From NCBI GenBank assembly GCA_051047955.1, contig JBPGPT010000053.1:1-64000 (forward strand): a stretch of DNA of 64,000 bases, in the 5' to 3' direction. Under the pieces are notes generated by a model that worked only from the letters and a program-made list of their open reading frames with translations, was not told the origin of the DNA and did no database searches. A program made the position numbers and the translations under genes. The DNA is from Cystobasidiomycetes sp. EMM_F5. Lineage: Eukaryota. Positions 43,219 through 61,600 of this stretch are shown in pieces (within the stretch, counting starts at the first letter, position 1; every line of letters begins with the position of its first letter).

Positions 43219-45643
43219 ATGATACGCACGCCGTCTTCGGGAGGAAGAGCGGGGCGTCACAGCAAACGCAAGTCGGGCAACGGCGGCCTGTCCAATATCG
43301 GGATTGGGTTACGCCTGACGAGCGGCTCGAGACGTGTCGGCTCTGGGACTCCCGGCGGGAGCATCAGTATCAGTGGGAGCGGTATCGTCAGCGGGACTGG
43401 CTTGGACGGCCATGGCATCCGTATCGACAGGTTTCTTCTCGTTCTCCGGCTGGCGTGGAGTCTTGTCGTCGTGTACGGCGAAGTCGTAATGTTTTCGTCT
43501 GCAGTGTCGCGCTGCAAATGGCCCAACAAGTTTGGCTACGATGTGGGTGCGCTCATTATCATGTTTTGTAATGGCTCATGTTGTCGTTGCAGCTCACAAG
43601 ATCAGGAAGCAAGCCATTCCACCTCCTCCTCGTCGCTGACCCTGTCCGTAGCACATGTACCTGACACGCATCCAATACTGACATTTGCGACAGCAAGTAC
43701 TCGACTTGCGGTCTAACCCTTCGCAAAACATCGCGCGGAGATATGTGCGCATGTGGATGAGCGATAACTTTGCCAGGAAAGCCTGGCGAATGGCCTTGAA
43801 GACACATAGACCCGACGCCGTCTTCTTCCTTGGAGATCTACTAGACTCGGGCGTTGAGGGTGAGCAGTACGACTGTACGCATTCGAACGAGTGTGACTGA
43901 GTCATTGGTTGCATCATGCTGCAGTCACCGACCGAGACGAGTGCGCAAACCTCATATCCTGGTTTTGACACTTTGCTGACAGTGCTTCAAGGCATTCCCA
44001 CTATGTGCACCGCTTTCAAAAGTATGTAGCGACTTGTATCCATATCCACTAGATCTGACGGCCTAATATGCTGTAAACCACAGTATATTTCGACCGCGCC
44101 CGTTCAATCTGCCAATGTACCATGTTCCTGGCAATCATGATCTAGGCCGTAAGCTACACTCCTCAATGCTATGGATGTGACGAGTTCAAAGCCATGTCTG
44201 CAGTACACCTAACGCCTGGCGGATCTGCCTACGCTAGAGAGCGTTTCTTGGAAACGTTTGGACCATTAAATGGGCGCGTAGACCTCGGTAATCACACACT
44301 AGTATGGATCGATGCACCTGGCTATCTTGATGAGACAGAACATGCGCCATCGCGATATCAGGACCCTACGTATGACGCAACAAACGGAGGGGTCATCGAG
44401 CATTTACAACATATTGCAAAGCGTGAGCTCATGGCTGTGATCATTATGGGTCAGCTTCATCTTATGCCTCTCCACTCGCAGAAACAAGTGCGCAAAGCCT
44501 GCCACGTATACTGTTCTCGCATATACCGTTACATCGACCGGAAGGCTCTTCATGCGGCCCGCTTCGCGAATCTCGAAGACTGCTACATCAAGTCGAGGGC
44601 AGTGAGTAGAGCAAGCAATCACTCTCGAGTTGGGCTAATGTGATCTTCGCGGCAGAAAATTACCAAACCGAGATTGACCAAACTGCATCAAAGTTTCTTC
44701 TCGAATCAGTCAGGCCTTCACTCATCTTTTCGGGCGACGACCACGACTACTGCGAGTATACGCATCATTTGGCTCTTTCGTCTCCCGTCGAGACGACGTG
44801 TAAATCGTTTTCATTGTCTCAGGATCTTCGACAGCCCGGCTATCAGCTTGTCTCGCTTTTGAACCCGCTCGATATCGAAGGCAGAAGCATGGACCCGTCA
44901 AGTACGCACTATAGTCAGCTATGCCTGTTGCCTAATCAGATGCGGGTGTATACACGACTATGTGAGTGACGGTCTCGCCATGGCATCTCGATGATCTCAT
45001 ACCCTACTTTGCAGACATACCGTGTATCTTGCTTACGCTATGCATACTTGGTCTGCCGAGGATATACTACAACCTTCGGCCGCGTCAGGGGACATCCGCC
45101 CGCTCAAATGGCCTTCCGATGCATTCGAGCTCTCTGGCGAGGGTGCTCCGCCGAGGTGTCAAGGCAGCCGACAATGAAGACGCCGACGAAGCTGCCGTCA
45201 TATCAGAGAGCGAGGACGAGATGATGAATTCGTCGTATTCTACATCCTATCCGATATCACCGCCTCATGCCAACTACGCCTACTCGTCGCCGACAGACGA
45301 CGATTACGCTAGTATAGTCACACCCTTTGAGATTATACCTCGACAGGGCGTCAAGAACCGAGTGAGACGGGTGTCCCGCGTCTGGCTTTGGGATCCAGAA
45401 TCGAGCGAGAATGCCTTTATGCGGGGGATGAAGAGGCTGGGACCGGTGTATCGGTACTTTATCCGACCCATCGAGAGGGTGACGAGGCAGGTCGTACGCA
45501 GGGTCTACGGTCGTCGACTCCAGATCCTGTTTGCCAAGCTCAACTCTGGCAACGTGGTGGGCGAGACTGTCGAGGATCTGATTGCGGTACTCTGGGTCGC
45601 TCTGGTCGTGTATGGCTCCATCTGGCTGTGGTTTACGTGGTAA
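43219..45643 (+). CDS. Cdc1/MPPE1 (PGAP5)-like metallophosphoesterase, multi-exon
   Basis: N-terminal transmembrane segment with YGE, LLLVADP, PDAVFFLGDLLD, VPGNHD, FGPLN, LFSHIPL..P....CGP.RE, IFSGDDHDYC, and C-terminal transmembrane segments. Confidence 0.85.
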
Positions 45644-45739
45644 TTTGATATGTCGGACATTGTTTCCCTTGTTGTTGCCATCAGTCAAAGCGGAGCAAAC
45701 CTGCGACAGTCTTGCCTTTGCTTCGACCAACCTGCAGCC

Positions 45740-47965
45740 ATGGCCATCGAGGACGCCCGGATGTCGAGCAAGGAAGCCTTTGAGCTCAACAAGGCCGCAG
45801 TGACCAAGCAGTGAGGGGGCAGGGCAGGGCAGGACGTCGAGGGCGATATCGAAAGCTGAGGATCGTATCGATATTCAGATACAAGGCCAAACCTCGTCTG
45901 GATTATAGAACTGGTGGGTAGCAGGTCTTGAAATGATAGTAAAACCTTCAGCTGACTGGCTGGCTCGTCGTCGCAGTGTCCGCAATCAATGGCGAGTTTG
46001 GGCAGGCCATATCGAGGATTGATTAGAATCCAGCATTGACGCATTGGAACTCATCAACAGGGCCCCTCGTCGTGCTCAACGATGTCCGATATGGGCAGTT
46101 TGGTGGGCTGGCTTGGATCTTTTGGCGGGGTTTTGGACGGTAAAGCTGACGACATTGGGGTTGCATCGTTTGATAGGCGAGATTGTGACGCTCTCGCTGC
46201 CAGACGGCTCAAAACGCGGTGGTCAAGTGCTCGAAGTGTCTGGTAACAAGGCAGTCGTCCAGGTGTGCTTGTGCGAGAGTTCTAATGATATAAGCAACCA
46301 TCTAATCACCGTCACACTGCCCCTCCAGGTCTTCGAGGGCACATCCGGTATCGATGTAGCAAAGACGCACATCAACTTCTCCGGACAGAGTATGCGCATT
46401 CCAGTGTCTGAGGACATGCTCGGTCGTGTATTCAACGGTTCCGGTGTGCCTATCGATAGCGGTCCCAAGGTCTTTGCAGAGGATTTCATCGACATCAACG
46501 GTATTCCTTCCTTCTTTGCGTGTTATAGTGATACCCGCTCATTTCTCGTCATTCACAGGCTCACCCATCAACCCCTCATCCCGTATCTACCCCGAGGAAA
46601 TGATCCAGACCGGTATCTCCACCATCGACGTCATGAACAGTATTGCCCGAGGTCAAAAGATTCCCATCTTTTCTGCTGCCGGTCTGCCGCACAACGAGAT
46701 TGCCGCTCAGATCTGTCGACAAGCCGGTCTCGTCAAAGGTGGCGGACACAAGGGCGCCCAAGGTGGACCTACCAAGACTGTACACGATGACCACGAAGAC
46801 AACTTCTCAATTGTATTTGGTGCTATGGGGGTCAATATGGAGACTGCCCGCTTCTTCCGCAAAGACTTCGAAGAGAACGGTTCGCTCGACAGAGTCTCCC
46901 TCTTCCTCAACTTGGCAAACGACCCCACGATCGAACGTATCTTGACACCTCGTCTGGCTCTTACCACAGCAGAATACTTTGCGTATCAGATGGAGCAGCA
47001 CGTCCTGGTCATCCTGACAGACATGACGTCGTACGCCGATGCGCTTCGCGAGGTTTCCGCAGCGAGAGAGGAAGTGCCAGGACGTCGTGGTTACCCGGGT
47101 TACATGTACACGGATCTGTCTACCATTTACGAGCGTGCCGGTCGTGTAGAAGGACGTAACGGATCCATCACCCAAATTCCTATCCTGACGATGCCGAATC
47201 AAGGTGAGTGCGCGAAATGTCCTGTACGAATAGCTGAAGCTTGACGATCACCCATTTTCCCAGACATCACGCACCCTATTCCGGATCTGACAGGTATAAT
47301 GACAGCTTTGCATACATGTTGGATTGCTGGCTAAACAATGATTGCACCTCATAGGCTACATTACGGAGGGCCAAATTGCTTTAGAGCGAAATTTGCACAA
47401 CAGACAGGTGAGGACAAAGCATTCTTTCATATTATTGTCATAGTCCTGACGAAGCGCTTCCTTGCAGATCTACCCGCCAATCGATGTCCTCCCATCGCTC
47501 TCACGGTTAATGAAGGTGAGAGGACTGACTCTACCCCATGGCAATCACTGCTCATTTCCGGTCACGTAGAGCGCCATTGGCGAGGGTTTCACGCGGAAAG
47601 ACCACAGCGAAGTTTCTAACCAGCTCTATGCCAAGTACGTCATCCGCTCTGTAGTCCTGCCGGTCAACTGCTAATGATGACCGTTACCTAGATACGCCAT
47701 CGGCAAAGACGCTGCTGCGATGAGAGCAGTCGTCGGAGAAGAGGCTCTGTCAACAGAAGAGAAGACGGCCATCGAGTTCCTTACCCGGTTCGAGAAGGAG
47801 TTTGTAACGCAAGGACCCAATGACAACCGTACCATCTTTGACAGTCTCGACCTCGCGTGGGATCTGCTCCGCATCTTCCCGAAGGATCAGCTGTCGCGAA
47901 TTTCGCCAAAGATTCTAGATGAATTCTACTCGCGCAAGACAAAGTCTACGCGAGATACTGCGTAA
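45740..47965 (+). CDS. VMA2: V-type proton ATPase subunit B, many short exons
   Basis: [85 protein letters not shown] and AVVGEEALS. Confidence 0.97.
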
Positions 47966-48463
47966 AAGGAATGCAGCAATAGAGGCAGTCTGGTGTAGCG
48001 TGTACTTGCATGTATGCCGTCGTCTGCCTGCAATACGTCGTCGAGATAGACTCGGTTTTAGGTGTACAATCAAATCACGACTTGCGAGCCAGTGTATCCT
48101 GTTGCACAAGTGCTTGCAGTTGGCGGAGAACGCTTCCGCTGCTTCCGCTGCTTCCGCTGACTTAAATATGTACGAAGCCCCGCAAATGCGGTTGCGCCTG
48201 ATTGCCCCTGTACGGGCGGGCATAACCTAAATATCCAGGCGGCTGTGCTGACCCGGCGATATCGTATATCCTGCGGGTCCACGTCAACGCAGAGTACTCT
48301 GCTGTTTTGCGTTTGCCGAGTCTGCTTTCCTTCATATCTCAACCTTCTCCGCTTTTGTCTTTCGTGACGGACTGACTGACCCTCGTCGTTCTAGCGCGCA
48401 GCCATCTGTTAATAGCTTCACAGCGTTTGTCGTGCTATCATATCCCAACGGCAAGCTTGCGAC

Positions 48464-49582
48464 ATGGCCGGACAAGCCAGCATTCTGGGTGATCTGGTGC
48501 CAGACGACAAGTACGAGTGGTGCCTGGACCTCGGATATACTATAACTACCGCAAACGTTGCCTATCAGGCGGAGCGCAAGGCAGACGGTCCTGAAGTGAT
48601 AGCCGAATTCCAGCAACACGTCGCACGCCTCACCGAGCTGAGCCAAAACATGATTACAAGATACATATCAGAGATTATACGCTTTGAACCGAGAGCAGCA
48701 AACTTCAGCCTCCTGGACTACCTGCGCAAGATTGCCAAAGAGGCCGCAGACAAGTACTCTCCGTCAGCCGCCGCGTTTGTCATGATAGGTGCTGCGTTTT
48801 CGCACGTCCAGCATACTGGACGGCTGGCTATCGACGATGCTACAAAGTCAGCTCAGCTGCGAGTTGCAGGAATGGAGTTCTTGGGAGTCGCTAGAAGATA
48901 CTGCAACCAAGATCGACATCTTGACGTGACGGCGTGTCAGGCGCTCATACGTTCCGAGTGTCGAGCTAAAGTCGACTTGGCGTACTTTTCTGGCTCGACC
49001 ATGTTGTCGGCCCTGCAAGCTGGCACACAGCCCGAGTCCATTTTGCTGATATTGCCAGATCCACAAGATGCATCACCGCTAGGATTGTTGCACGAGATGG
49101 CTGCAATTCAAAACAGCCTTCAGCTAGGTCAGCACTCTAGACACTACAAGCTTCACGTCCACCCTGCAGCACAATTTCCTCAACTCCCACTGCAGCTGAG
49201 TCAGTCAAAGGCTACGATTGTCCATTTCGCTGGACATGGAGAGGGTGGCGTATTGATGTGGCAGAAGCAGGATGGCAAGGTCAAGGGCTACTCAGCATCC
49301 GTCCTCGGCAAGGTGCTAGCCTCGACTAAACGAGTCAAGCTCGTCATTCTGAACGCCTGCCATAGCAACGACGGAGTGCACGAGATGGCAAAGCACGTAC
49401 CAAACGTCGTCAGCATGCGGGGTGAAATAGGTGACGACGCTGCAACCATCTTCTCTCGCCATTTCTACGAGCTCTTGGCCAATGGCGAAGCCGTAAAGAC
49501 GGCGTTTGACACAGCCAAGTTGATGGCCGAGATTGAAGGACCTTGTGATACATTTGATGCTCATCTTCTGCAGCAAGATTAG
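48464..49582 (+). CDS. CHAT-domain (caspase-like, clan CD) protease with an unknown helical N-terminal domain; intronless
   Basis: ILLILPDP..LGLLHEMAAI, IVHFAGHG (catalytic His), LVILNACHS (catalytic Cys), VVSMRGEIGDDAATIFSRHFYELLANGEAVKTAF. Confidence 0.85.
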   Translation: MAGQASILGDLVPDDKYEWCLDLGYTITTANVAYQAERKADGPEVIAEFQQHVARLTELSQNMITRYISEIIRFEPRAANFSLLDYLRKIAKEAADKYSPSAAAFVMIGAAFSHVQHTGRLAIDDATKSAQLRVAGMEFLGVARRYCNQDRHLDVTACQALIRSECRAKVDLAYFSGSTMLSALQAGTQPESILLILPDPQDASPLGLLHEMAAIQNSLQLGQHSRHYKLHVHPAAQFPQLPLQLSQSKATIVHFAGHGEGGVLMWQKQDGKVKGYSASVLGKVLASTKRVKLVILNACHSNDGVHEMAKHVPNVVSMRGEIGDDAATIFSRHFYELLANGEAVKTAFDTAKLMAEIEGPCDTFDAHLLQQD

Positions 49583-49952
49583 AGCGGAGATGCTGGCCTG
49601 GCTGGTCTCCTGCATCACTCCTACACGACCGCGTATGGCTGTTGTTCGTCCCTTACCACTCAGTCTCGTGTCGTGTCGTACTATTTTCTGGATATTCTGT
49701 TATATTTAGGACCGAGTGCGTTAATCGGATGTTGCGTCAGCTCCACGGGATCGGTGCAATGTCATTAGCGGAGGACATATTCCCTTGCTAAGCATCAAAA
49801 GCAGAAATACTATCAATATCGAAAGCGACCTTTTATTCCAGACACAACAGTATGCGCGCACAAGTCTAGCAGGCTCTTGGTGTGGTCCCCTGTCGATGCG
49901 ATGGAAGTGTAGACGCTAGCGTGGCCAAAAGAGTGCTAGGATGAATCAACAA

Positions 49953-50888
49953 TCACTGTTGAAAGAGAGTACGGACATTAGCCAAGATGACAATGTGCAA
50001 TTGTATTTGGGTGCGACTAACATCCTTCATCTCTGCGTCGCCAGTCTTTGCCTCTGTCGACTTTGATGACCTATCCTTTCGCTCGAGGAGGGCCGAGCGA
50101 TCCTTGTCGAGCTTGAGCTTTGTGACTACGACGTTGGAAGGGTGTACGCCAATGGGAACTGTCGCGCCATTCGTCTTTTCCCTGTGCACCCGCTCTACGT
50201 GGATGACAAACTTTTTGCGGTACACCTGAGTCACTTTGCCTTCCCGACCCTTGTATGTCCCCCGGACAATCAGCACTTCATCGTCCTTGCGGATTGGAAT
50301 GGAGCGAGCCTGTGTGGATGAGTAATGTCAGTACTCCCTCGTTTACACATCGTATACTGGAGAGTCGGCAGAGCAGGGCGGGAAGGTATATCGACTGGAG
50401 ATGTGATTGCAAATTGGCGGAATGTGTCGACGTTGTCCAGATGTCGGAAATCAGCAGGGTGCTGAATAGCAAAACCATTGGATGGTCTTCCTGGATCGTC
50501 CTGAAAAGTCTCCTCGGTACATGCTGAATGAACAGCCGCAGTTACTGGCGGACCAGAGAAGTGCGATGCATCTATAACCTCCGAATGGTCTACCATCTCT
50601 CGTGTCGTAGTCTGCAGTGTCGAGTCGAGTCGTCGTCGTCGTCGTCTTTGCCGATGTGCCTAATCCCTGCCCTGCCTAATCCCTGCCCTTTTTTCGCCCA
50701 ACTCACGCTATGCTTTCCTCTGAGCTCCTTTGACAGAGCTGCCGACATGAGCGTCCTCCTCACGCTCGATGGGGCATCAAAGTGCGCCTTTCGCGACTTG
50801 CGAGACGACGACGAGACGTCTGGGTTGTTGGAGTCAGCGATTGTTGTGCAACCATCAATTACGCATATCCACCTTTTGAGTACTTCAT
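49953..50888 (-). CDS. RPL26: 60S ribosomal protein L26 (uL24), three introns
   Basis: [84 protein letters not shown]...[16 protein letters not shown]. Confidence 0.97.
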
Positions 50889-51167
50889 GGTTGCTGCAGG
50901 TATCTGAAGTGATGCTACGCTCTGATGGGAAGGGATTTGGGAATGGACCTTTCAGGATTCTTGATTTTTCCGGGAAGGCTGAGGCCCAAGAAAAAAGAAA
51001 AGAAAGGGGGAACTCGGGAGAGACATGTTCTTCGCAACCGTTGGAGCGAACATGTCCTACGTCGCGACAGGAGACGCGTCGATGATTCAAGTTGGCAATG
51101 CTGCTGCTGCTGCTGTTGCTTCTTCTTTGTCAGAAGATCCGCAGATACAATCTTCACATCTGCTGAT

Positions 51168-53259
51168 ATGCCGTACAACTCTGCTAACACTGCTAACATC
51201 ACCCTCGAAGACTCGCTCCGCCAACTGATCAGTGACGAGGTGCAGTGCGCCATCCCCCCGCCAGCTGAGACGCACGAGCTAGTCGTAGAGGCTATACGAT
51301 TCAGCAGCACCTTGTCCGACCCTGTGAAGGATGTACTCGAGAAAGCCTGGTGCATGCAGCCGCTAGTCGCAGCCGACGTCTACGGCCAAGACTGGGTTTC
51401 AGACGCACTTGCGACCGACAGGCAGCTCTGGGAGAATGTCGAAACAACTTTTGCAGCAAAGGTCGCAGGGAAATACAAGACAGAGCGACTCGCACCGTAA
51501 GAGACTGCTCATACAGCTAACATACGTCGCTCTTCAAGCGGTCAGTCTGACGCGACTACTTTTTGCCATACCTTTGCCACCAGTTTTGTAGAGTGGTCCC
51601 CCGGCCATCCCATTTGCATCCAGAACTGGCCGACACTATCCAAAAACGCCTCTAACCCTGATGCTGACCTCTGGGATCCTTCAAACTCGTCTCATTGCGC
51701 TCATTACCTCCGCAAAGAAGGCATGGAGGCCGCCAAAGTCTGCGTATTCGACTGGACGCCAGCACGTTTTTCTAACGAACTAACGGGCAAAGATCCACAA
51801 GCCAAGCTTCCTGACGAGTTTCTAAATGCTTGCGACGCATGGGTGTACCATCGCATTCGAGCCACCATCGCCTGCAACGCGACCGTCATCATCATCTCCT
51901 CATGGTGCCGCAATCGCTTCTTTTCGCAGCACACCCGCCAAAATCTGCAGACTTACCCTTTGACGGTCAATCTACCCATTACACCCTCACATTCGATGCC
52001 CAGCGATTTCTATTTCCTTCGCTGCATCGGTCCGAATTCTATTCAGTACGCTGGTTGCGGCAAAGTCTTCTTCAAAGCTTCTATCGCGACACTGACCAAA
52101 AAGACTCCGATAAGCAAGCTTGCAGAAAGCGTAAGGTTCTGAGATGCAACGTTTTTGCGTTATTGAATAGCTTGTACAGGATCTTAAGCTCAATCTCATA
52201 TATGTAAGCTGTCTACCTCTATTTTCTTTACTCCACCTGCCTCGTATCCTACACCTCGCTTCTGGCATCGCAGGCGCTCACGACTACCTCTGGTTCTGCT
52301 ACGGTACCGCCCATCTAGCCAAAGTTGGCCGAGACCAGAATATCACCTTCGGAAGCGTCAACGATGCTGTAAGCGCTGGAGGAACCGTTCATTTTTGGAA
52401 TCGACTCGAGTTATACCACGCAAACAACGCTACCCACATCACATCAATCAAATTGCTCCTTCCAGCCAGCCGACGCGAATGTCTGATCGCACAGGCTGAT
52501 AAACTCATGCGCTATCGTGCAGCCATCACTACAGCTCAGATCCGAAAATACGAGATTGACGGGGAATTTCGCATCGGAACAGGTTCGCAGCAGCGGGCTG
52601 ACCGCACAGCCCAGCGCCGCGACTACGAGGTGAATGGCGAGATGCGCACCGGCACCGGCACCCAGCAGGGAGTGGATCGCAGCGCCATCACGCGAGCGCA
52701 GCGACGTGACTACGAAGTGGATGGCGAGATGCGTAACGGAACCGGTATCCAACAGGGGAAAGACCGAACAGCTTAGCGTCGCGACTACGAAATTGACGGC
52801 GAGACTCGTCACGGAACTGGTTTCCAGCAGAGAAGAGATCGCACAGCTCAACTTCGCGACTACGAGGTGAATGGCGAGATGCGTAACGGAACCGGCACCC
52901 AGCAAAGAGTGGATCGCAGCGCCATTACGCTAGCGCAGCGACGTGACTACGAAGTGAATGGCGAGATGCGCAACGGCACCGGCATCCAGCAGCTACAAGA
53001 TCGTCGCCTTGATACCCTGACCCGACAGCGAGAAGCGAAAAACGAGGCATACGCAGAACTCCTCAGTCGAACGGGCAAGAAGTACCTAGGAATGGGTCGC
53101 GGTCTTGGCGTGACAGCATCTCGGGCCGTTTCGTCCCACTCAGTCCGGCAGCCACGCTCGCATCACCCGTATCACAATCAGCAGCGACGCCCAGGGGAAG
53201 TCAGCCTCAGTCTCTGTTTAAATTACACCAGCAAGCTCCAGCCGAGCCCATCGTCATAA
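51168..53259 (+). CDS. Orphan protein (or recent pseudogene): alpha/beta N-terminal region plus a C-terminal 6-copy tandem repeat, with an in-frame TAG at 52774-52776
   Basis: Exon 51168-51496, intron 51497-51583, exon 51584-52130, intron 52131-52170. The frame is then open from 52171 to the TAG at 52774 and continues in the same frame to 53259. Confidence 0.6.
52531..53010 (+). repeat. Coding minisatellite: six units of 75-84 nt forming a 237-nt higher-order unit present twice
   Basis: Consensus peptide (T)AQRRDYE[VI][ND]GE[MFT]RxGTGxQQxxDR. Units 1 and 4 start at 52531 and 52768, 237 nt apart. Confidence 0.92.
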
Positions 53260-53638
53260 GGACGCAGGATCTCGGCTCTCCGCTTCCAATGTTCAGCAAT
53301 CAGCCAGTAGACTACAGTCCGATGGCCAGCTATATGATGGGAAACATGTGGGACAGCATGCGGGAGTCGGCGAGTTGGGATGGCAGTCAGATCGAGTACG
53401 ATAGTTCAAGCCTGTACAGCTTTCAGTGAAAGCCGGCTCGTGTGCCAGTCGTTTTGCGCGTAAACGAGCAGCAATAAAAGTCAGTCGAGCTCTTCCAAAT
53501 GGATTGTTTGCCGTTCTGTCTGCTCCGACGCATTGTCTACCCTGATAATGGCAGGTTGCCAACCCGTCGTTGTATACATTTGCACACACAACAATCTCCG
53601 CTGCTCTGACCGTTCAAGGACTCGAGCACTTTCTGACC

Positions 53639-56600
53639 ATGACTGCACTCGATAATGTCCAGTCCAGCACTCTGCTGGCCAGCTCATCGTCATTGTCCGC
53701 TGAGGGTCCTGAAGCAATGTTTCGAAAACTGCGACTGACGGCCAAGAATTACAAACAACACGCTCAGGCTGCCCAGCTGGCATGGCGGATATACCAGAGG
53801 AACAGCAGTCAAGTGTACATCCCGCGCAGGGAGCACTACGTCCTCGAATGGCTCGTAGACCGGTTGCTAAAGACCAAAGACGAAGGAAGAAACGGGTGGG
53901 TCTTGTGATTGCGATGGGATGGAGGCACGGCTGACGTGGTGAGGTTGTGATGGACGCAGACCACTCCTTCAGCTCCAGTACTGGAAGCTGTTTTTGTCCC
54001 TCGTCCAAGATGCCGCCGTCCAGACGAGATATGGTCAACTACAGCAGACACTGCAGAAAACGCCAACACTGCCAATTCTGACTGCGCTCGTTCAATACGT
54101 ACCGGAGCTCTTGAAGGAGGACGTCTCTTCTGATGACAGCAGCCGCCGTAAGGGCAAAGCAAAGGCCGCAGAAGGCGAGACTGCCCATGTCGTCGAGCTG
54201 TTGGAGACCGTACATCAAGTATATGCGATGTTGCTGCCATCGTTGAGCGGGTCAACCATCACAGACCAGCTGCTGGCATCCCTAAGCAGCTGGTTATCGC
54301 ATACTACGTCTTTTATAGAATCGGTCGACACATCTGACAATGTAGCCTGTTCTAGCTGGATCAGCATAGCATCTCTTCTCACAACGACGCTACAATCGTT
54401 CATCAAGGCAGACAAGAATGCAGCTCGCAAACTGCATACCTTCATTCTCAGCCATACAAACTTTTCAAAAGCCGTCATGGCTCTTCAGACAATGGAGACG
54501 TCATCTCCCGCTTCTGCACAATTGTCTGCAGCTGTCCGTCAAATCTTCTCTGTCAGCTTGTTCTCCTATCAAAACCTGTCGCGAACTCTGCAGCCCGCTC
54601 TGTTGCCGTCGTCTACACTCGAGCAGCTCTCATCAACGCAACTGCTCCGCGAAATTTCTGCGGCAGTAGCTGCGAATGTGGCAACAGCAGGGAATAATGT
54701 TCTGCTCCTCCTCCCGTTGCTGACAGACGAACTCGACAAAGCATTGCAAAAGTATGGCCTCGATCTGCTACAGAAGAATGTTCGAACCAATGCAGCTCCT
54801 ATGTCCACCTCCGCAGCCGAGACGACAGCTCTGACATTTCGCCGCAATGCTACCTTTTCCTTCCTTTCGATGACCCTGGACGTGATTGTACCCCTGGCTG
54901 CATCGGTCGATGCTGCTCGCCTCGTCCTTCATCTCGTCAACCACATTGAGCAAAAGAAGCTGTATACTGCGGCAGCGGGCGAAAACAGTAAATCTTGGAT
55001 GAACGTACTCTGCAAGACTGTTCAATACCTTGTCGATCTCTACGTAGCGTCAAGAAGTACGGAAGCGGTGGAAGCGATGACGACTGTAGCCCGCCTGGAC
55101 TTCTCAGCAGTCGAGCCTGCGCTGCCCGATATCATGCGAGCCGTATCGACAGACCGCCATTCATCAATTGGAGAGTCGTTTATGCAAGAAGCCATTTCTT
55201 ATGCTGCTCGATTGCGAAACCTTCCGACACTCGTTGGTCAGATTGCGGATGCCTTCAGTTCACCTTTGGCAGATCAAAAATTACCGTCCTTACGAAGTTC
55301 AATCATCTCCCTTCCGACAAGGCAGCTCTTGGCGAAAGAGTGTGTCGACAGTCTGTCTGCAGACCAGGCTATGTCGCTTGTCATCACACTACTTGAGCGC
55401 ATGCAGCAGATAATCACAAATGGCTTCGGGCAACGGGAAACGGGAGGATTTGAAGCGGAACAAAGTCCGAAGAAGCGAAAAACTGGCAAAGACAGCCACA
55501 TCGCGAGCCTGGATGTTGGTGTAGAAAATGGCGACGAATCTGCCGTCGGCCTGTCGAAGCCGGCTGGAAGTGCAGTCTACTTTCAGGCACTCGCATCACT
55601 TGCAATTGTGATACTCCAAGCAGAGATTGAAGTATCGGAACATCAAACGGAGACAGTATGTACCGCTGTGAACGAGTTGTGCAATATTGGTCTGTCGATA
55701 CTCTTATCCATACACACTGCATCAGACAATCAGCAAATCCAAGCGGCCGCCTGTCTACAGCTCGCTTTAGCGTGCCGTAATTTCGGCAAGATCAATCTGC
55801 CTCCCATTACTCAGCTCAATGCAGCTCTTAATGAAGTCTTGCCTGCAACGAAACGCAAGAAGACTTCGTCGAAAACAATACTCCCTTGCCTGACAGTACA
55901 GATTGTATGTGTCTTTCTAACACTAGACCTCTCTGTAAGATGCTGAGTATTATTACTCCGGGATGACTAGATCCATACTTTGTTGGAATTGGATGCGCCA
56001 CCTATGGATGACATCTTTCGGATTGTGTCAGCAGGCCTTCGAATACAACCTGCAGCAGTCTGGGATGGTTACACGGATGATATTTCAAGGTCTCATCTGT
56101 GCATTGCGATATGGTATATATTGACCGTGCGATACCTCCCGCTCGTAGAGACAGCCAGTCCGGAGCATCTCGAAGACTTCGTCAAGCTCTTCTTTGCAAC
56201 GGTAATCACAACAAAGGATGGTGACGTGACCGAGCAAGGATTGACACTTGCCAATATAACGCGGCTAAGTCTTCGCTCAGCCGCATTCTACGAATATGTC
56301 CGGATCCGATCGTATGTAATGGCGTACATCGACAAGCACGAAGACCCACAGGATCTACTGAATGAAATGGTGCTTGTGCCGCGTGATTACGTCGACAAAT
56401 CCATCCGCCGGAAAGTTGCCCTTCGGCTTGGACAAAGCGACAAGAACAACCCTCTGACGGACGGTCTACTTCTTGCATGGACAAGGGACGATGTTGGTAG
56501 TCCATTGGTGCGTGAGATACTGAGGCCAAGTACGACTCTTCCTGATCCAAGCATTTTAGAGTCTCGATTTGGCGTACTTGCAGAAACTCGCTCTTCGACA

Positions 56601-58471
56601 AGAAAGCTCATCCGGGGCTGGCCAACTGTTTGAGCAGCTCTTACAGTGATTTATACTAATAAACGACCATCCCGGCGGTATTTCAGCTAACGCAGATACC
56701 TATGCAGGCTTTTATTCCAATCATGGAACGCTTCGCCGACGAAATATGGCGATCTGCAAGTCTTGATCTCTGGTATCTCGCCTGGAGGATCTAATACCGC
56801 CATTGATCTATTCTCCGTCGACCAAAGCAAAGGCATGCCGCACAACTCTGCAATTCTAAAAATGGTCAGTGTCCTGATTGAAGAGAGCAAGCCGGCATCG
56901 TAGGTTGTGTAGACTGGGCCCGCTGACATAGATAGGCTGACCAACCGGGTCTGTCAAGACTACCCGAAGCACTACTCGCTTTTCTAGCACAACAGGTACA
57001 GATGGTTCATACAGAGGTGCGCAATCTCGTCGCGAGATACGAGGATAAGGGGTCCAGTCCACAGGCCAGCACGCTGCATAGTCTCATTGCGGTGCAAAAG
57101 CTGCGACAATGGCTGGGGTCTGCGGTAGCCATTAAGGCTAGCCCAGATACATTGGCGCATCTAGCTGTCACACTGCTCCAGGTCGCCGTTCGTGGAGAAG
57201 CGGATCCTGAACAAAGCTATCTAATACTAGAACTCGCGAGTCTGAACGTCTCGGATCATGGATTGATATCCTTTGAAGTGTTTGTAGCGGCAGCCGTATT
57301 CGTTAGACAACATCTGAGCAGTTCGGGTAAGCCCAAGCTATCATTCTGATTCGTATACCGATACACTGATGCAATGGCCTCGCACTCGCAGACAAAGTTG
57401 ACAAAGTACTGGAACGTACCACTTATCGACAATCGATTATCAGCTACGATGCTGCTTTACAAGCTTTGATCAGCGCGATCTCGATCTCCACACCAGAGCA
57501 CGTTTTGTCGGCAGCGCTAGATTCATTGTCCATCCTTGTCGGCAGTCATCCTTCGGAATCGGCAAGATCCGCAGCACACGCCATCACTACTTCCACAAAA
57601 CGGCTGCTACTGTGTGACGTACAGCACTGCACAAAATCCATAGTTTCCTCGGTAATCCGCTTCATCCGCAGTATATGCTCTCACAAGGTTGGCATTGCAT
57701 TCACCAATACATGTTCGCCGATATCGCTAATTGAAGTATCTGCAGATTACCAGCCTGGAAGTCCACGATGTCGGCACTATTTTTACGCTTATTGTGAAGA
57801 TCTGTGGGCCTTCGAGTCCTGACGTGCATTCAACCCTGCAAACGAAAGCCACGATAGGCGACATCTACTTGGGAATGGTGGACATTCTATCAATGCTATC
57901 ACTACAGCGCCGTGACCTGCTAGTGCCAATATTCCCTCAGTTCTGTACGGCCTTATTGGCTTTGATACGGCTGTTGCGTTTACCTGCGCCAGGGACCATA
58001 CCCGCAGCTGCTAAAGAGCACACTTCAGCATCGTTTCCGGCATGGGCGTCTATCTCGATCAACGACGATGGAATCAGTAATGTGCACGGGAAAGCGTTGG
58101 CTCGCTTACTGTCGAGCTTGGACACTAAAGCAGTCATATCACGCCAAACTCGCTCTGCACCTAGTAGGGACGGCTCGCGCAAGGACGCAGGGGGACAATC
58201 GTTGCAAGTCTCTTTGTTGGGACCGCTATCAAAACATGCACCCTTTCTCATGGTCGGCTACCTTCGTGCCGCCACTGATGCAAGAACTCCTTTGTCTGTT
58301 TCGTTACGCAAGGAACTGCAACCTGGGATTATGACGATATTGGGATCAATGGGCAAATACGAGCGAGAGTCGCTTATGCGAGGCTTCCTCACCGACGATA
58401 TGGAAGCCGAACGTGTCCTGCTTCGGGCCATGTGGACAACGTACGACAAGATTCGCTACAAAGGCAACTGA
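53639..58471 (+). CDS. URB2: Nucleolar pre-60S factor URB2/NPA2-like, multi-exon
   Basis: N-terminal YIPRREHYVLEWLVDRLLK, a long helical body, and C-terminal LSKHAPFL...RKELQPGI...RVLLRAMWTTYDKIRYKG resembling the Urb2 domain. Confidence 0.75.
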
Positions 58472-58612
58472 TGGCAGTCACACATGACACAAATTCGTGC
58501 ATCAGCCAACTGGCGCGATTCCGACAACGATCAGAAAGAAAGTGGAATGAGATGTGACCCCCCGACCACGCTCGACTAGTGCGAATGGCAATCGGCACAA
58601 AGCTCTCACGTC

Positions 58613-61600
58613 TTACATATGCAATATCGCATGCATGGCTAACGTAGCCTGCATGTCTGCCAAAGTGGAGTTTCGCGGTATTTTTCGGGCTAGTAACATG
58701 ACCATGAGCATTCTTGCTGGCTCGAGATCTACCTCGGGTGTAAGTCGAATTCGTCGTTGTATTGACTTAGCCAAACCCGCTAGGCATTCGTCCAAAATTT
58801 CCGGCGCGATCGCTGGCATTTTATAACCTTGCACAAGCTTTTCGGCTTTTTCAATCGAGCACGTGAAGAGCTGCTTCACCTGCTTCTGTGTTACTCGCGA
58901 CTCCGCCACCTGCTTACCGAAAGGAGTCGTCACCAGACGTAGACGGTCCCGCGTCTGAACCAGGCAGTGATGCTTAGCAGTCTCCATAAAGCGATCTACA
59001 AGATGCGATAACAAGGCAGAGCGACTCTGAGGGTGACAGTCATACAGAGAAGGGTTGTTCACCACCTGATGAGAGAAGAATGTATTTGCGAAAGCGTCGA
59101 GGCATGATTGTTGGTTGTGTATCCGCCCAGTTGTGATGTTTCGCAATATCAGCCGCATAAAGATGTCCGATTCCAGCAGCGTAGATTCTATTGGAAGGCC
59201 CTCCGCCAAGAATTTGGAGAGCAGCGTGGCTTTGTCATTCTGAGTGAAGACCATGAAGGTCGCGCTATCTTCGGATGCTTTCCCTTGGGCCAGAGATTGC
59301 ATCTGTAAAATGTCCTGCATGCCGTAGTCTACGATCTTGCTCTCGCTCGATCCGGGGCGGACCTCGGCCATCTGTGTGCCCATGACGATGACTAAAGGGC
59401 TGGCGTGAGGTAGTGTATAACACGCTTCGCGAGGCGCTATGAGTACTTTGAGGGCTCCAGATGCGAATAGATGCAACGAGATGCCTTGGTCTGTCGGATG
59501 CATTCCATCATGGTATATCGCGAAACCATGCTGTATGCCCTCAGCAAGCTGCTGATCAGTGACGCGCTCAGCATAGAGCAGAAGGGTATCGGCATCGATA
59601 TTGATGAAGCCGTTCAGATCCAATGCCGAATGGGCAGTGAAGTCAGTCAGGGTCCTATAACACTGCGCGCGATGTGAAACGAAGCATATGGCGGAGTCGC
59701 TTTGATTTCGGATGGCATCGTACGCCGGCTTTATCATAGCTTTCATCAGACTAGGGGAATGTGGTTGACCGAAGCTGACGGTACGATTGACCAGTGGCAT
59801 TGGTCGGCTGGAAGGAGGAAAAGATAGCATATGCTCATCTTGCACATTCAGCCAAACCGCCACGTCTCGCCCGTCGACAAGGCACGAAGAGAACGCCACG
59901 ATCCTGACGTCTTCGCCTCCATTTTGCGTGATATGCGAAAGAGCCAGCTCATACTCTGCTGAAAGAGATTGCAAATCGTCCGCTACAATAAGATCGTAAT
60001 CTTGCGAGGTCTCGTAAGATGGTGTTGCAATGGTGATTGTGTGCCCGCTCCGCGGCATCGGTGCATGCTTTGCGCCTCGTGTTTCGATCAGGACGTTATA
60101 GTGAGCTTCCCAGCTACGTAATCTTGCGTTCAATCGGTGGCGAAGCGCTCGAGCGAGTGTCGCGTTGGCAGTCATTACGAGACACCTTGAGGTGGCTTGA
60201 GTCTTGATGACTCGCCTGTGTACCGGGTTTAGTCGTTGCGGAATACGAAACTTAGAATGACGTACCATATACACAGACATAGGAGTTCATGTCGCGCTGT
60301 ACTGATAGGAGCGCTGACGAGTAAGTTACTGTTGCTAAAGAAAATCGAATGCAGGGAACGGATCTCGAACGGACTGAGTAAATTGCGGTGAATGCCGTAG
60401 AACTCTGCAAGATCGGCGTGTATATGATCTGGGGTATAAGGTAGATGCGATAACGTGATCTTCGGCGGAGCGGTACGAGGTAAATGTAGTTTGGAAGTAT
60501 CAATTGTCATGGTCTGATCGCAGCCGAACCACGTTTCGGATGACAGACGAATATGTAGCTGTCGAGGTAGGGTGAAAGCGGGAATACTGAATTCGATATC
60601 GATCTCGGTCGCTTCAGAGCGAACAGCGAATCTCGAATACTGATGAATGTCGTGATCGTTACCATCGCTGACCCAGATGTAGAAGAATTGAACTCGACCA
60701 TGAATTTTCTCCGACCACTCAAAATCGGGTTGGACTACCAGACTGATTCGCAGAAGGTCGTGAGTCAAAGTCTTGATGCGGCTTTGAACTGATAAACGAG
60801 GCAGACGCCTCGCAGCGGTGTGGACCATATCACCGAATCGCTCATTCATGTGTATTAGGCTACCTAAGTCCATAGCTGTACTCTGAATAATCTCCTCGAT
60901 GGACATGGCCTCAATCCATCGATTAATGTTGTATACGACCTCAGACGGCAGCGAAAGCTGTTGCAGGGGATGAACCCATGGCCACATCCGCTCTGTGAGA
61001 TGCCATCAGCCTTCATTCAATAGCAGCCTACACTCCTTTCCTACTTTCGACCGCTTTGCATATCGATAGCAACGAAGCTGTAGCTTGCGACCATTTTCTG
61101 CTCATTACGATTTCTTGCAGAGCGCGAGCAATCCTTCCAGCATTTTGCGCGACCTGCGACCGTGAGATGCGTTAGGCCATTTTCGGGTAGATTGTATACC
61201 AACTCACATAACCCATATCCGAAATAAGCGCAAAGTCCTCAAGCTGAGCTTGGCAAATGAAGGCCTGAAGCAGAACATTGGCCTTGCCATCGGACGTGTC
61301 GGTTCCCCCTTTGACTTGACAAGGTATGACATTCTCAATCAAGCGCTTGAGCTCGTCGGTCTCCGAATCACGAATGGCGACTTGGTCAAATTCAGTGCTC
61401 TTCGCCAGCACAGCAAGAAGGTCTGCTTCTGTCATCTTGGGCCGGAGTAGTTCGTTAAACTTTTCGATGCTTGCAGACCGCACATAGTATTTCGAAGCGA
61501 TCTGACCAATCTCCGACGAACTTAAGCCTTCTGTGGCCTCGTCATGTTGCACCATACCATTTCGCGTGAGAGCTTTGACGGCATTGAGGACAAGGTCGCG

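Follow-up and report, generated by a model that had tools for sequence, protein, structure and literature searches.

The repeat array and its coding status

Is a short tandem repeat in the nuclear DNA of Cystobasidiomycetes sp. EMM_F5 part of a protein-coding gene, and if so, what kind of domain does it encode? We addressed this question in a computational analysis of a stretch of 64,000 nucleotides (nt) from this fungus (GCA_051047955.1, contig JBPGPT010000053.1, positions 1-64,000, + strand; hereafter the window), in which an earlier note had placed an array of repeats with (ABC)x2 order at 52531-53010. A motif search and a hidden Markov model (HMM) of the unit delimited six units (Table 1). 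The array is indeed there, on the + strand; however, its last unit ends at 53004, and the end given earlier adds two residues (RL). The search with a unit HMM that the note had proposed was run on the six-frame translation of the window and found only the six known units. The (ABC)x2 order was confirmed, as unit lengths of 25, 28 and 26 amino acids (aa) recur and two 237-nt copies (52531-52766 and 52768-53003) are 81% identical. Tandem Repeats Finder assigned the array a period of 75 nt with a score of 248.

The motif described as invariant, YE..GE.R.GTG.QQ..DR, was found in all six units, and the 13 residues R, Y, E, G, E, R, G-T-G, Q-Q and D-R are the same in every one, as in the 25-aa example R-R-D-Y-E-V-N-G-E-M-R-N-G-T-G-I-Q-Q-G-K-D-R-T-A-Q. 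Variation falls at the sites reported before: the residue preceding GTG reads I/T/N/H/N/N from unit 1 to unit 6, the residue following it S/T/I/F/T/I, and both residues after QQ vary. Further variable sites are the residue after the leading Q (I/R/R/R/L/R) and a residue of the second strand (F/M/M/T/M/M). One detail had been misread, in that unit 4 ends in QQRRDR and not QQREDR. Across its 158 residues the array has 55 charged residues and a net charge of +3, with six Tyr, two Phe, one His and no Trp or Cys.

We consider it very probable that the array is a real coding repeat of an undescribed family. Comparison of the two three-unit blocks by the Nei-Gojobori method gave 25.2 synonymous differences over 54.8 sites and 19.8 nonsynonymous differences over 179.2 sites (pN/pS, the ratio of nonsynonymous to synonymous proportions, 0.24; Fisher p 1.5e-7). 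After correction, the ratio of the nonsynonymous to the synonymous rate (dN/dS) was 0.17, with dS 0.71. The purifying signal is confined to the sense frame, the remaining five frames giving pN/pS values of 0.40-2.18, and 12 of the 13 invariant residues use two to three codons, with Tyr alone always TAC. The claim that selection acts on the protein is thus upheld. Among the unit pairs, dN/dS by the same method was 0.05-0.31 in the 12 of 15 for which dS was computable (unsaturated), well under the value near 1 that the earlier note, for an untranscribed region, had named as evidence against its view. The B pair (units 2 and 5) has a dS of 0.42 and the C pair (units 3 and 6) of 0.73, and the A-type pair (units 1 and 4) is much more diverged, with pN 0.23 and saturated dS. 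With dS ranging from 0.42 to saturation, the unit duplications are old. Differences between the blocks comprise 24 transitions vs. 22 transversions.

An antisense open reading frame (ORF) of 153 aa (52444-52905, - strand) lies codon for codon opposite the repeat and crosses the stop codon of unit 4 described below. Its pN/pS between the blocks is 1.25, which marks it as a side effect of codon usage in the sense frame; it is not a gene.

Gene model and the in-frame stop codon

The array appears to be the internal part of a larger gene, at about codons 455-612 of ~700 and making up ~158 of ~690 residues of the predicted protein. The earlier note was correct about the array itself; it missed this multi-exon gene and its truncation by a stop, as well as two distant relatives and a suggestive similarity to bacterial choline-binding-type repeats, which are discussed below. 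We picked splice sites by eye from consensus and tested the exon joins in silico. A codon-usage log-likelihood trained on the confident ORFs of the window put frame 3 ahead over 51141-52100 and again over 53061-53360, with frame 1 ahead over 52161-53060, and in all four proposed exons codon usage fits the confident genes of the window. The stop-to-stop ORF that carries the start of the array on the + strand is 52171-52776.

For putative intron 1, an alternative acceptor at 51583 would give a length of 87 nt, and either acceptor keeps the frame. Putative intron 2, which would be 40 nt long with an alternative acceptor at 52170, takes out a TGA (52140-52142) and links frame 3 in phase with frame 1. 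Intron 3 is a candidate chosen by eye from many that restore one open frame to 53429; two frames are both open for ~250 nt after the array (within 53012-53429), and near 53060-53120 the coding signal passes from frame 1 to frame 3. Instead of an intron, a frameshift within ~53060-53260 may account for this change, given the weak GTACCT donor of intron 3. A further intron-like stretch, 52204-52273 (GTAAGC...CAG, 70 nt), was rejected as an intron, since its translation lines up residue by residue with the start of the relative P0002 and its removal breaks the frame. This coding stretch could trap automatic gene callers.

The N-terminus encoded by exon 1 is polar and without a hydrophobic signal-like stretch (judged by eye and not with a predictor), in agreement with the earlier remark that no signal peptide is seen. 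Exon 2 has no Pfam match, and a word-indexed search found no homologue among longer proteins, a weak negative in that such searches need shared 5-residue words. The ESM Atlas leads for exon 2 were all of low overlap (score 0.89-0.90, 152-155 shared features) and were put down to chance. The tail encoded by exon 4 is probably disordered.

The stop marked earlier in unit 4 proved to be a real in-frame TAG. It is the single internal stop of the four-exon model (codon 491-509) and the only clear disabling lesion found in ~690 codons. As a consequence, this copy would encode just the N-terminal region and three units. The stop may have arisen by a recent nonsense change from CAG to TAG or, less likely, may be a base-call error; this copy is probably a recent nonsense allele. 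Repeat-induced point mutation (RIP) as the cause found no support, as there was no RIP-like dinucleotide skew, with TA/AT at 0.59 in the array vs. 0.64 in the window. An intron excising the TAG was also rejected, since the sole GT...AG pair seen around it (GTATCC at 52746 to AG at 52775-52776; scanned by eye, not enumerated by script) spans 31 nt and is out of frame. The window contains long uninterrupted ORFs of 1065, 1082 and 877 aa, and its FKS1 gene is split by a canonical 62-nt intron (GTGAGT...CTGAT...ACAG). These long ORFs and this clean intron speak for a sound assembly and for TAG being read as an ordinary stop here.

Relatives of the array protein

The family had been called unrecognised, and no Pfam family reached threshold on the array or on any exon by hmmscan. 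Two hits below threshold were set aside, DUF7560 (E 0.0019, 18.3 bits vs. a cut-off of 27, over an 11-residue stretch) and CBM_X2 (E 0.032). A phmmer search of 1.84 billion representative proteins returned five matches at E <= 0.001, and two of these are credible relatives, P0002 (216 aa, E 7.3e-15) and P0004 (223 aa, E 1.6e-7). P0002, P0004 and the fungal array have in common a non-repetitive pre-repeat domain (LWFC..LAK, GG.FHFW.RLE.Y.RNN, LLLP..R) followed by tandem units. Both relatives are 33-36% identical to the array protein and look like fragments, with units that are more aromatic in P0002 and more irregular in P0004. The looser unit that they share can be written R-x-aromatic-x3-[DNS]G-x4-G[TDN]G-x2-Q, with R, D/N/S-G, G-x-G and Q as invariant columns, and P0001, P0002 and P0004 all combine the pre-repeat domain with at least two units of this skeleton. 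The other three matches are the bacterial surface proteins P0003 (E 5.9e-8) and P0006 (E 6.5e-4) and a tail-fibre-like protein, P0005.

Word-indexed protein searches, which again depend on shared 5-residue words and are weak negatives, found no match for P0001 among proteins of near length or for alignment A1 among longer proteins. The ESM Atlas held no usable match for 52279-52775, the pattern matches among Joint Genome Institute (JGI) metagenome contigs were not confirmed by tblastn in any case, and prokaryote genomes gave no confirmed match. Among PDB sequences there was none for P0001 or P0003 and one chance-level row for alignment A3 (E 0.25). The portion of the full-text literature that was accessible held nothing on such a repeat, which is a thin basis for calling the repeat unpublished. 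The repeat family is real, rare, unnamed and very sparsely sampled by the collections searched.

Predicted structure of the unit

AlphaFold2 was run twice, on constructs spanning 52279-53256 and 52180-53010, each aligned with the two relatives (a 3-sequence alignment). Both runs predicted, in all six units, the hairpin (YEV-NG-EMR) and short helix that the earlier note had proposed, at moderate confidence: a strand-turn-strand followed by a helix of 9-14 residues, with predicted local distance difference test (pLDDT) values of ~60-85 over the array. One unit, for example, was modelled as R-K-Y-E-I / D-G / E-F-R-I-G-T and then a helix, G-S-Q-Q-R-A-D-R-T-A. Helices of low confidence were predicted in the pre-repeat domain. 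We regard a hairpin-helix unit as somewhat better than an even bet on these models. Their predicted template modelling scores (pTM) were only 0.33 and 0.32, and the packing of one unit against the next is therefore undefined. The variable positions of the unit are 13, at the end of strand 2, and 17, 20 and 21 in the helix; as the latter follow an i, i+3, i+4 pattern, they would point to the same side of the predicted helix.

Neither model had a significant match in Foldseek (best E 0.4-0.46) or in VIA-align wide (best Z 4.2 and 5.6). The VIA-align rows mostly reflected the long terminal helix or the low-confidence pre-repeat helices. The array was hardly probed alone, and a new fold is therefore not claimed. 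Weak Foldseek rows included CTCF chains for both models (rank 7 for one; ranks 11, 24 and 29 for the other) and TRAF6 for the second model only (ranks 17 and 25); these are not significant (E ~1, TM-score <= 0.23) and merely fit a string of beta-beta-alpha beads. The array does resemble C2H2 zinc-finger arrays such as that of CTCF in its predicted beta-beta-alpha unit, its period of 25-28 aa and its variable residues at the start of the helix. However, it has no Pfam zf-C2H2 match, and it lacks the TGEKP-type linker that zinc-finger arrays carry. With no Cys and one His in 158 residues, it is not a zinc finger.

Interpretation

The explanation we prefer is that the array forms the central repeat domain of a genuine protein-coding gene restricted to this fungal lineage; taken as a whole, this explanation has about an even chance. 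The six units arose by duplication of a unit and then of the three-unit block, and selection since then has kept a scaffold of 13 residues per unit. On this interpretation, each unit would fold as a hairpin with a tight NG or DG turn (R-D-Y-E-V / E-M-R-x), a G-T-G turn and a helix (x-Q-Q-x-x-D-R-T-A-Q), and the units would align as an elongated array. An intracellular location is suggested by the absence of a hydrophobic N-terminal stretch from exon 1. The residues that differ between units, namely the last residue of the hairpin and helix positions 1, 4 and 5, may together make up, on one face, a modular surface that contacts an extended or repetitive ligand, whether nucleic acid, polymer or protein, and other activities would be supplied by the ~450-residue N-terminal region and the acidic-aromatic C-terminal tail. 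That the array binds in this way, with specificity positions like those of TALE to which the earlier note compared it, we think possible but less likely than not. Still more speculative, and improbable in our estimation, is a metal-free, zinc-finger-like (beta-beta-alpha) modular recognition domain of fungi, in which every unit would recognise a single element of a repetitive ligand such as DNA or RNA by means of the variable residues at the hairpin end and at helix positions 1, 4 and 5, the C-terminal tail serving as an effector or activation region.

Several observations weigh against the preferred explanation. The premature stop means that the gene may already be dead in this strain, and the poor donor of intron 3 may conceal a second lesion, a frameshift. 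Among public sequencing runs none of RNA was found for the locus, the two contigs from DNA runs cover no part of the array, and no annotated protein with the array was found by word-indexed search in a collection of 5.8 billion clusters. The predicted fold comes from a 3-sequence alignment with a pTM of 0.32-0.33, and a hairpin-helix of 25 residues, poor in hydrophobic side chains and devoid of metal ligands, may be unstable by itself. A net charge of +3 over 158 residues is low for a protein that binds nucleic acids. Finally, as there are six units and no orthologues to compare, the proposed specificity positions are indistinguishable from unconstrained surface positions.

Programmable binding scaffolds come mainly from short tandem repeat domains, among them zinc fingers, TALE, PUF, LRR and choline-binding repeats. 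Should the predicted fold be right and binding proceed unit by unit, the array would be a new minimal scaffold with a very small hairpin-helix unit and no need for metal. For the present, with a tiny family and a truncated copy, the array is a well-documented lead and not a discovery.

Alternative explanations

The in-frame TAG, at a position where the five other units have Gln, is one reason to ask whether the locus is a recently dead pseudogene in this strain, in which case the repeat pattern would reflect past selection and nothing would be made now. The frame change near 53060-53120, which needs either an intron with a weak donor or a frameshift, and the absence of the array-bearing protein from the collections searched point the same way. 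However, one clear lesion only was found in ~690 codons, the codon-usage signal continues past the stop, the composition is not RIP-like, and the base call at the TAG lies outside the public contigs at the locus; moreover, a shortened product with the N-terminal region and three units could still act. We consider this explanation possible but not probable. The earlier note had offered two further alternatives, neither of which fared well. Were the protein the source of repeated peptides released by Kex2, or of a peptide natural product made on the ribosome, it would be cut at RR, and RR does precede D-Y-E in four of the six units, much as fungal Kex2-processed repeat proteins and ustiloxin-type precursors have short tandem units with RR. 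Such processing is nevertheless hardly credible here, since no signal-like hydrophobic N-terminal stretch was seen by eye, the array makes up only 158 of ~690 residues behind a large N-terminal region, and a single Arg, inside a predicted strand, is conserved across P0001, P0002 and P0004. The neighbours are RPL26 and URB2, with no tailoring enzymes and thus no biosynthetic neighbourhood. An amyloid-type signalling repeat (of the HET-s, PP or sigma kind) is brought to mind by the G-I-Q-Q-G of unit 3, which loosely resembles the G-x-Q-x-G motif of fungal amyloid cores, and the tandem repetition of the DNA might suggest a non-coding minisatellite. The frame-specific pN/pS and the protein-level relatives exclude the latter. 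As for amyloid, there are six internal copies where a terminal motif would be expected, 55 of the 158 residues are charged, a helix is predicted in every unit, G follows QQ in just two of the six units, and RPL26 and URB2 flank the gene with no NLR-type neighbour (NLR, NOD-like receptor). Taken together, this pair of explanations is very improbable. The analogy with HET-E was not borne out either: like the array, HET-E and other NWD-type NLR repeats combine a fixed framework with a handful of variable sites in each unit, but they are WD40, ANK or TPR units that recurrent exchange keeps almost identical. The units here are old (dS 0.4 to saturation) in blocks ~81% identical and thus not recently homogenised, and the array protein has no NLR domain and no WD40, ANK or TPR match in Pfam.

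A different origin is suggested by two of the five phmmer matches, the bacterial surface proteins P0003 and P0006, whose 24-aa repeats Pfam calls Choline_bind_4 (PF21540; E 9.7e-20 and 1.4e-17). The fungal units could be diverged eukaryotic descendants of such bacterial choline- or cell-wall-binding beta-hairpin repeats, forming a hairpin solenoid with interfaces that bind a repetitive polymer. Profile against profile, hhalign gave a probability of 87% and E 4e-6 over 150 columns at 30% identity in one register, values that periodicity inflates. Unit against unit, 8 of 25 positions agree (Y, N-G, T-G-I, Q and D) with the bacterial A-W-Y-Y-V-Q-N-G-Q-Y-V-K-K-T-G-I-A-Q-K-A-D-K-S-S-S, the periods are nearly equal (24 vs. 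25-28 aa), and both kinds of unit run in the order aromatic strand, NG turn, second strand and T-G-I-x-Q-x-x-D connector. With the register fixed on the NG turn, the unit profiles scored 15.3 vs. a maximum of 10.7 in 40 column shuffles, and P0002 retains more aromatics (W-F...G-E-W-V-Y). On the other hand, no choline-binding Pfam family matched the array or either half by hmmscan, even at E <= 10; hhalign on a single unit, in the same fixed register, gave only P 0.0056 and a probability of 2.8%; and the array-level E-values are inflated by periodicity and belong to matches that are also the best of 1.84 billion. The W and Y-Y aromatic cluster forms the ligand cage of choline-binding repeats, and the bacterial W-Y-Y corresponds to R-D-Y in the fungal units, which have charged residues there, one Tyr per unit and no Trp. 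Choline-binding repeats have a loop at the connector, where AlphaFold2 places a helix in the array, and the repeat protein, with its intracellular context, has no secretion signal by eye. The turn motif NG-x-x-R-x-GTG-x-Q is also matched by the tail-fibre-like P0005, which suggests that such turn-rich motifs recur by convergence. For these reasons we think common descent with choline-binding repeats rather unlikely. A related, bold reading is that fungi adopted a bacterial cell-wall-binding hairpin repeat for an intracellular role; if the link were real, a bacterial surface-anchor repeat would have been reused inside a eukaryotic cell.

P0005 itself (1410 aa) has a Peptidase_S74 chaperone domain and ~47-aa repeats with M-N-G-N-I-R-L-G-T-G-L-Q. 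Its likeness to the fungal units is probably convergent.

Genomic setting

The window is fungal nuclear DNA. Its ORFs matched by Pfam include the FKS1 1,3-beta-glucan synthase (E 1.7e-248), Urb2, a CHAT-domain protein, an ATP-synthase alpha/beta-family subunit, DEAD-box helicases, ribosomal protein L26, a Sec63/Brr2-like helicase and a GNAT acetyltransferase. The repeat gene is flanked by RPL26, which lies upstream and head to head with it, and by URB2, upstream of which the repeat gene lies. Since the first exon of RPL26 is ~300 nt from the ATG of the repeat gene, the two genes probably share a bidirectional promoter.

Table 1. Features of the repeat gene and its surroundings, in positions of the window
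Feature	Position	Strand	Basis or description
Whole predicted gene	51168-53429	+	Four exons, 687-705 codons depending on acceptor choice; in-silico exon joins
Exon 1	51168-51496	+	Begins at ATG 51168; no Pfam match
Putative intron 1	51497-51538	+	42 nt, GTAAGA...CTAAC...AAG; splice consensus only
Exon 2	51539-52130	+	Open frame, positive codon-usage score; N-terminal region
Putative intron 2	52131-52179	+	49 nt, GTAAGG...CAG; inferred
Exon 3	52180-53081	+	Pre-repeat domain, six-unit array and following helix
Pre-repeat domain	52201-52530	+	LWFC..LAK..GG.FHFW.RLE.Y.RNN..LLLP..R...A.A....R; shared by P0002 and P0004
Unit 1 (A-type, 25 aa)	52531-52605	+	Motif search, unit HMM
Unit 2 (B-type, 28 aa, SAI extension)	52606-52689	+	Motif search, unit HMM
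Unit 3 (C-type, 26 aa)	52690-52767	+	Motif search, unit HMM
Unit 4 (A-type, 25 aa, carries stop)	52768-52842	+	Motif search, unit HMM
In-frame TAG	52774-52776	+	Other five units have Gln there (CAG in four, CAA in one)
Unit 5 (B-type, 28 aa)	52843-52926	+	Motif search, unit HMM
Unit 6 (C-type, 26 aa)	52927-53004	+	Motif search, unit HMM
Post-array segment	53005-53081	+	AlphaFold2: one long helix continuing from unit 6, 235-264 in P0001 numbering
Putative intron 3	53082-53143	+	62 nt, GTACCT...CTCAG, weak donor; inferred
Exon 4	53144-53429	+	S/P/Q-rich tail, acidic and aromatic C-terminus; TGA 53427-53429; no Pfam match
ORF with C-terminal CHAT (caspase-like) domain	48416-49582	+	E 1.4e-11; two genes upstream of repeat gene
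RPL26 gene	49956-50850	-	Pfam Ribosomal_L26 E 1.3e-16, KOW; apparent intron ~400 nt
Simple repeats, RPL26/repeat-gene intergenic and leader region	50629-50689 and 51099-51120	+	(GTC)6, 16-nt unit x2, (TGC)7

The ORF with the CHAT domain showed neither a NACHT nor an NB-ARC domain, and nothing was found to connect it with the repeat gene. A search of 45000-60000 against Rfam gave 0 matches. Two public DNA runs with small shares (0.07 and 0.05) gave contigs that match the locus only at 52230-52492 and 51602-51752, neither of them over the array or the TAG. Contigs at the locus were 95-99% alike in a phyllosphere-metagenome run and at least 99% alike in another run. Since these contigs match parts of the gene, the source fungus, or one closely related to it, is also present elsewhere in public data.

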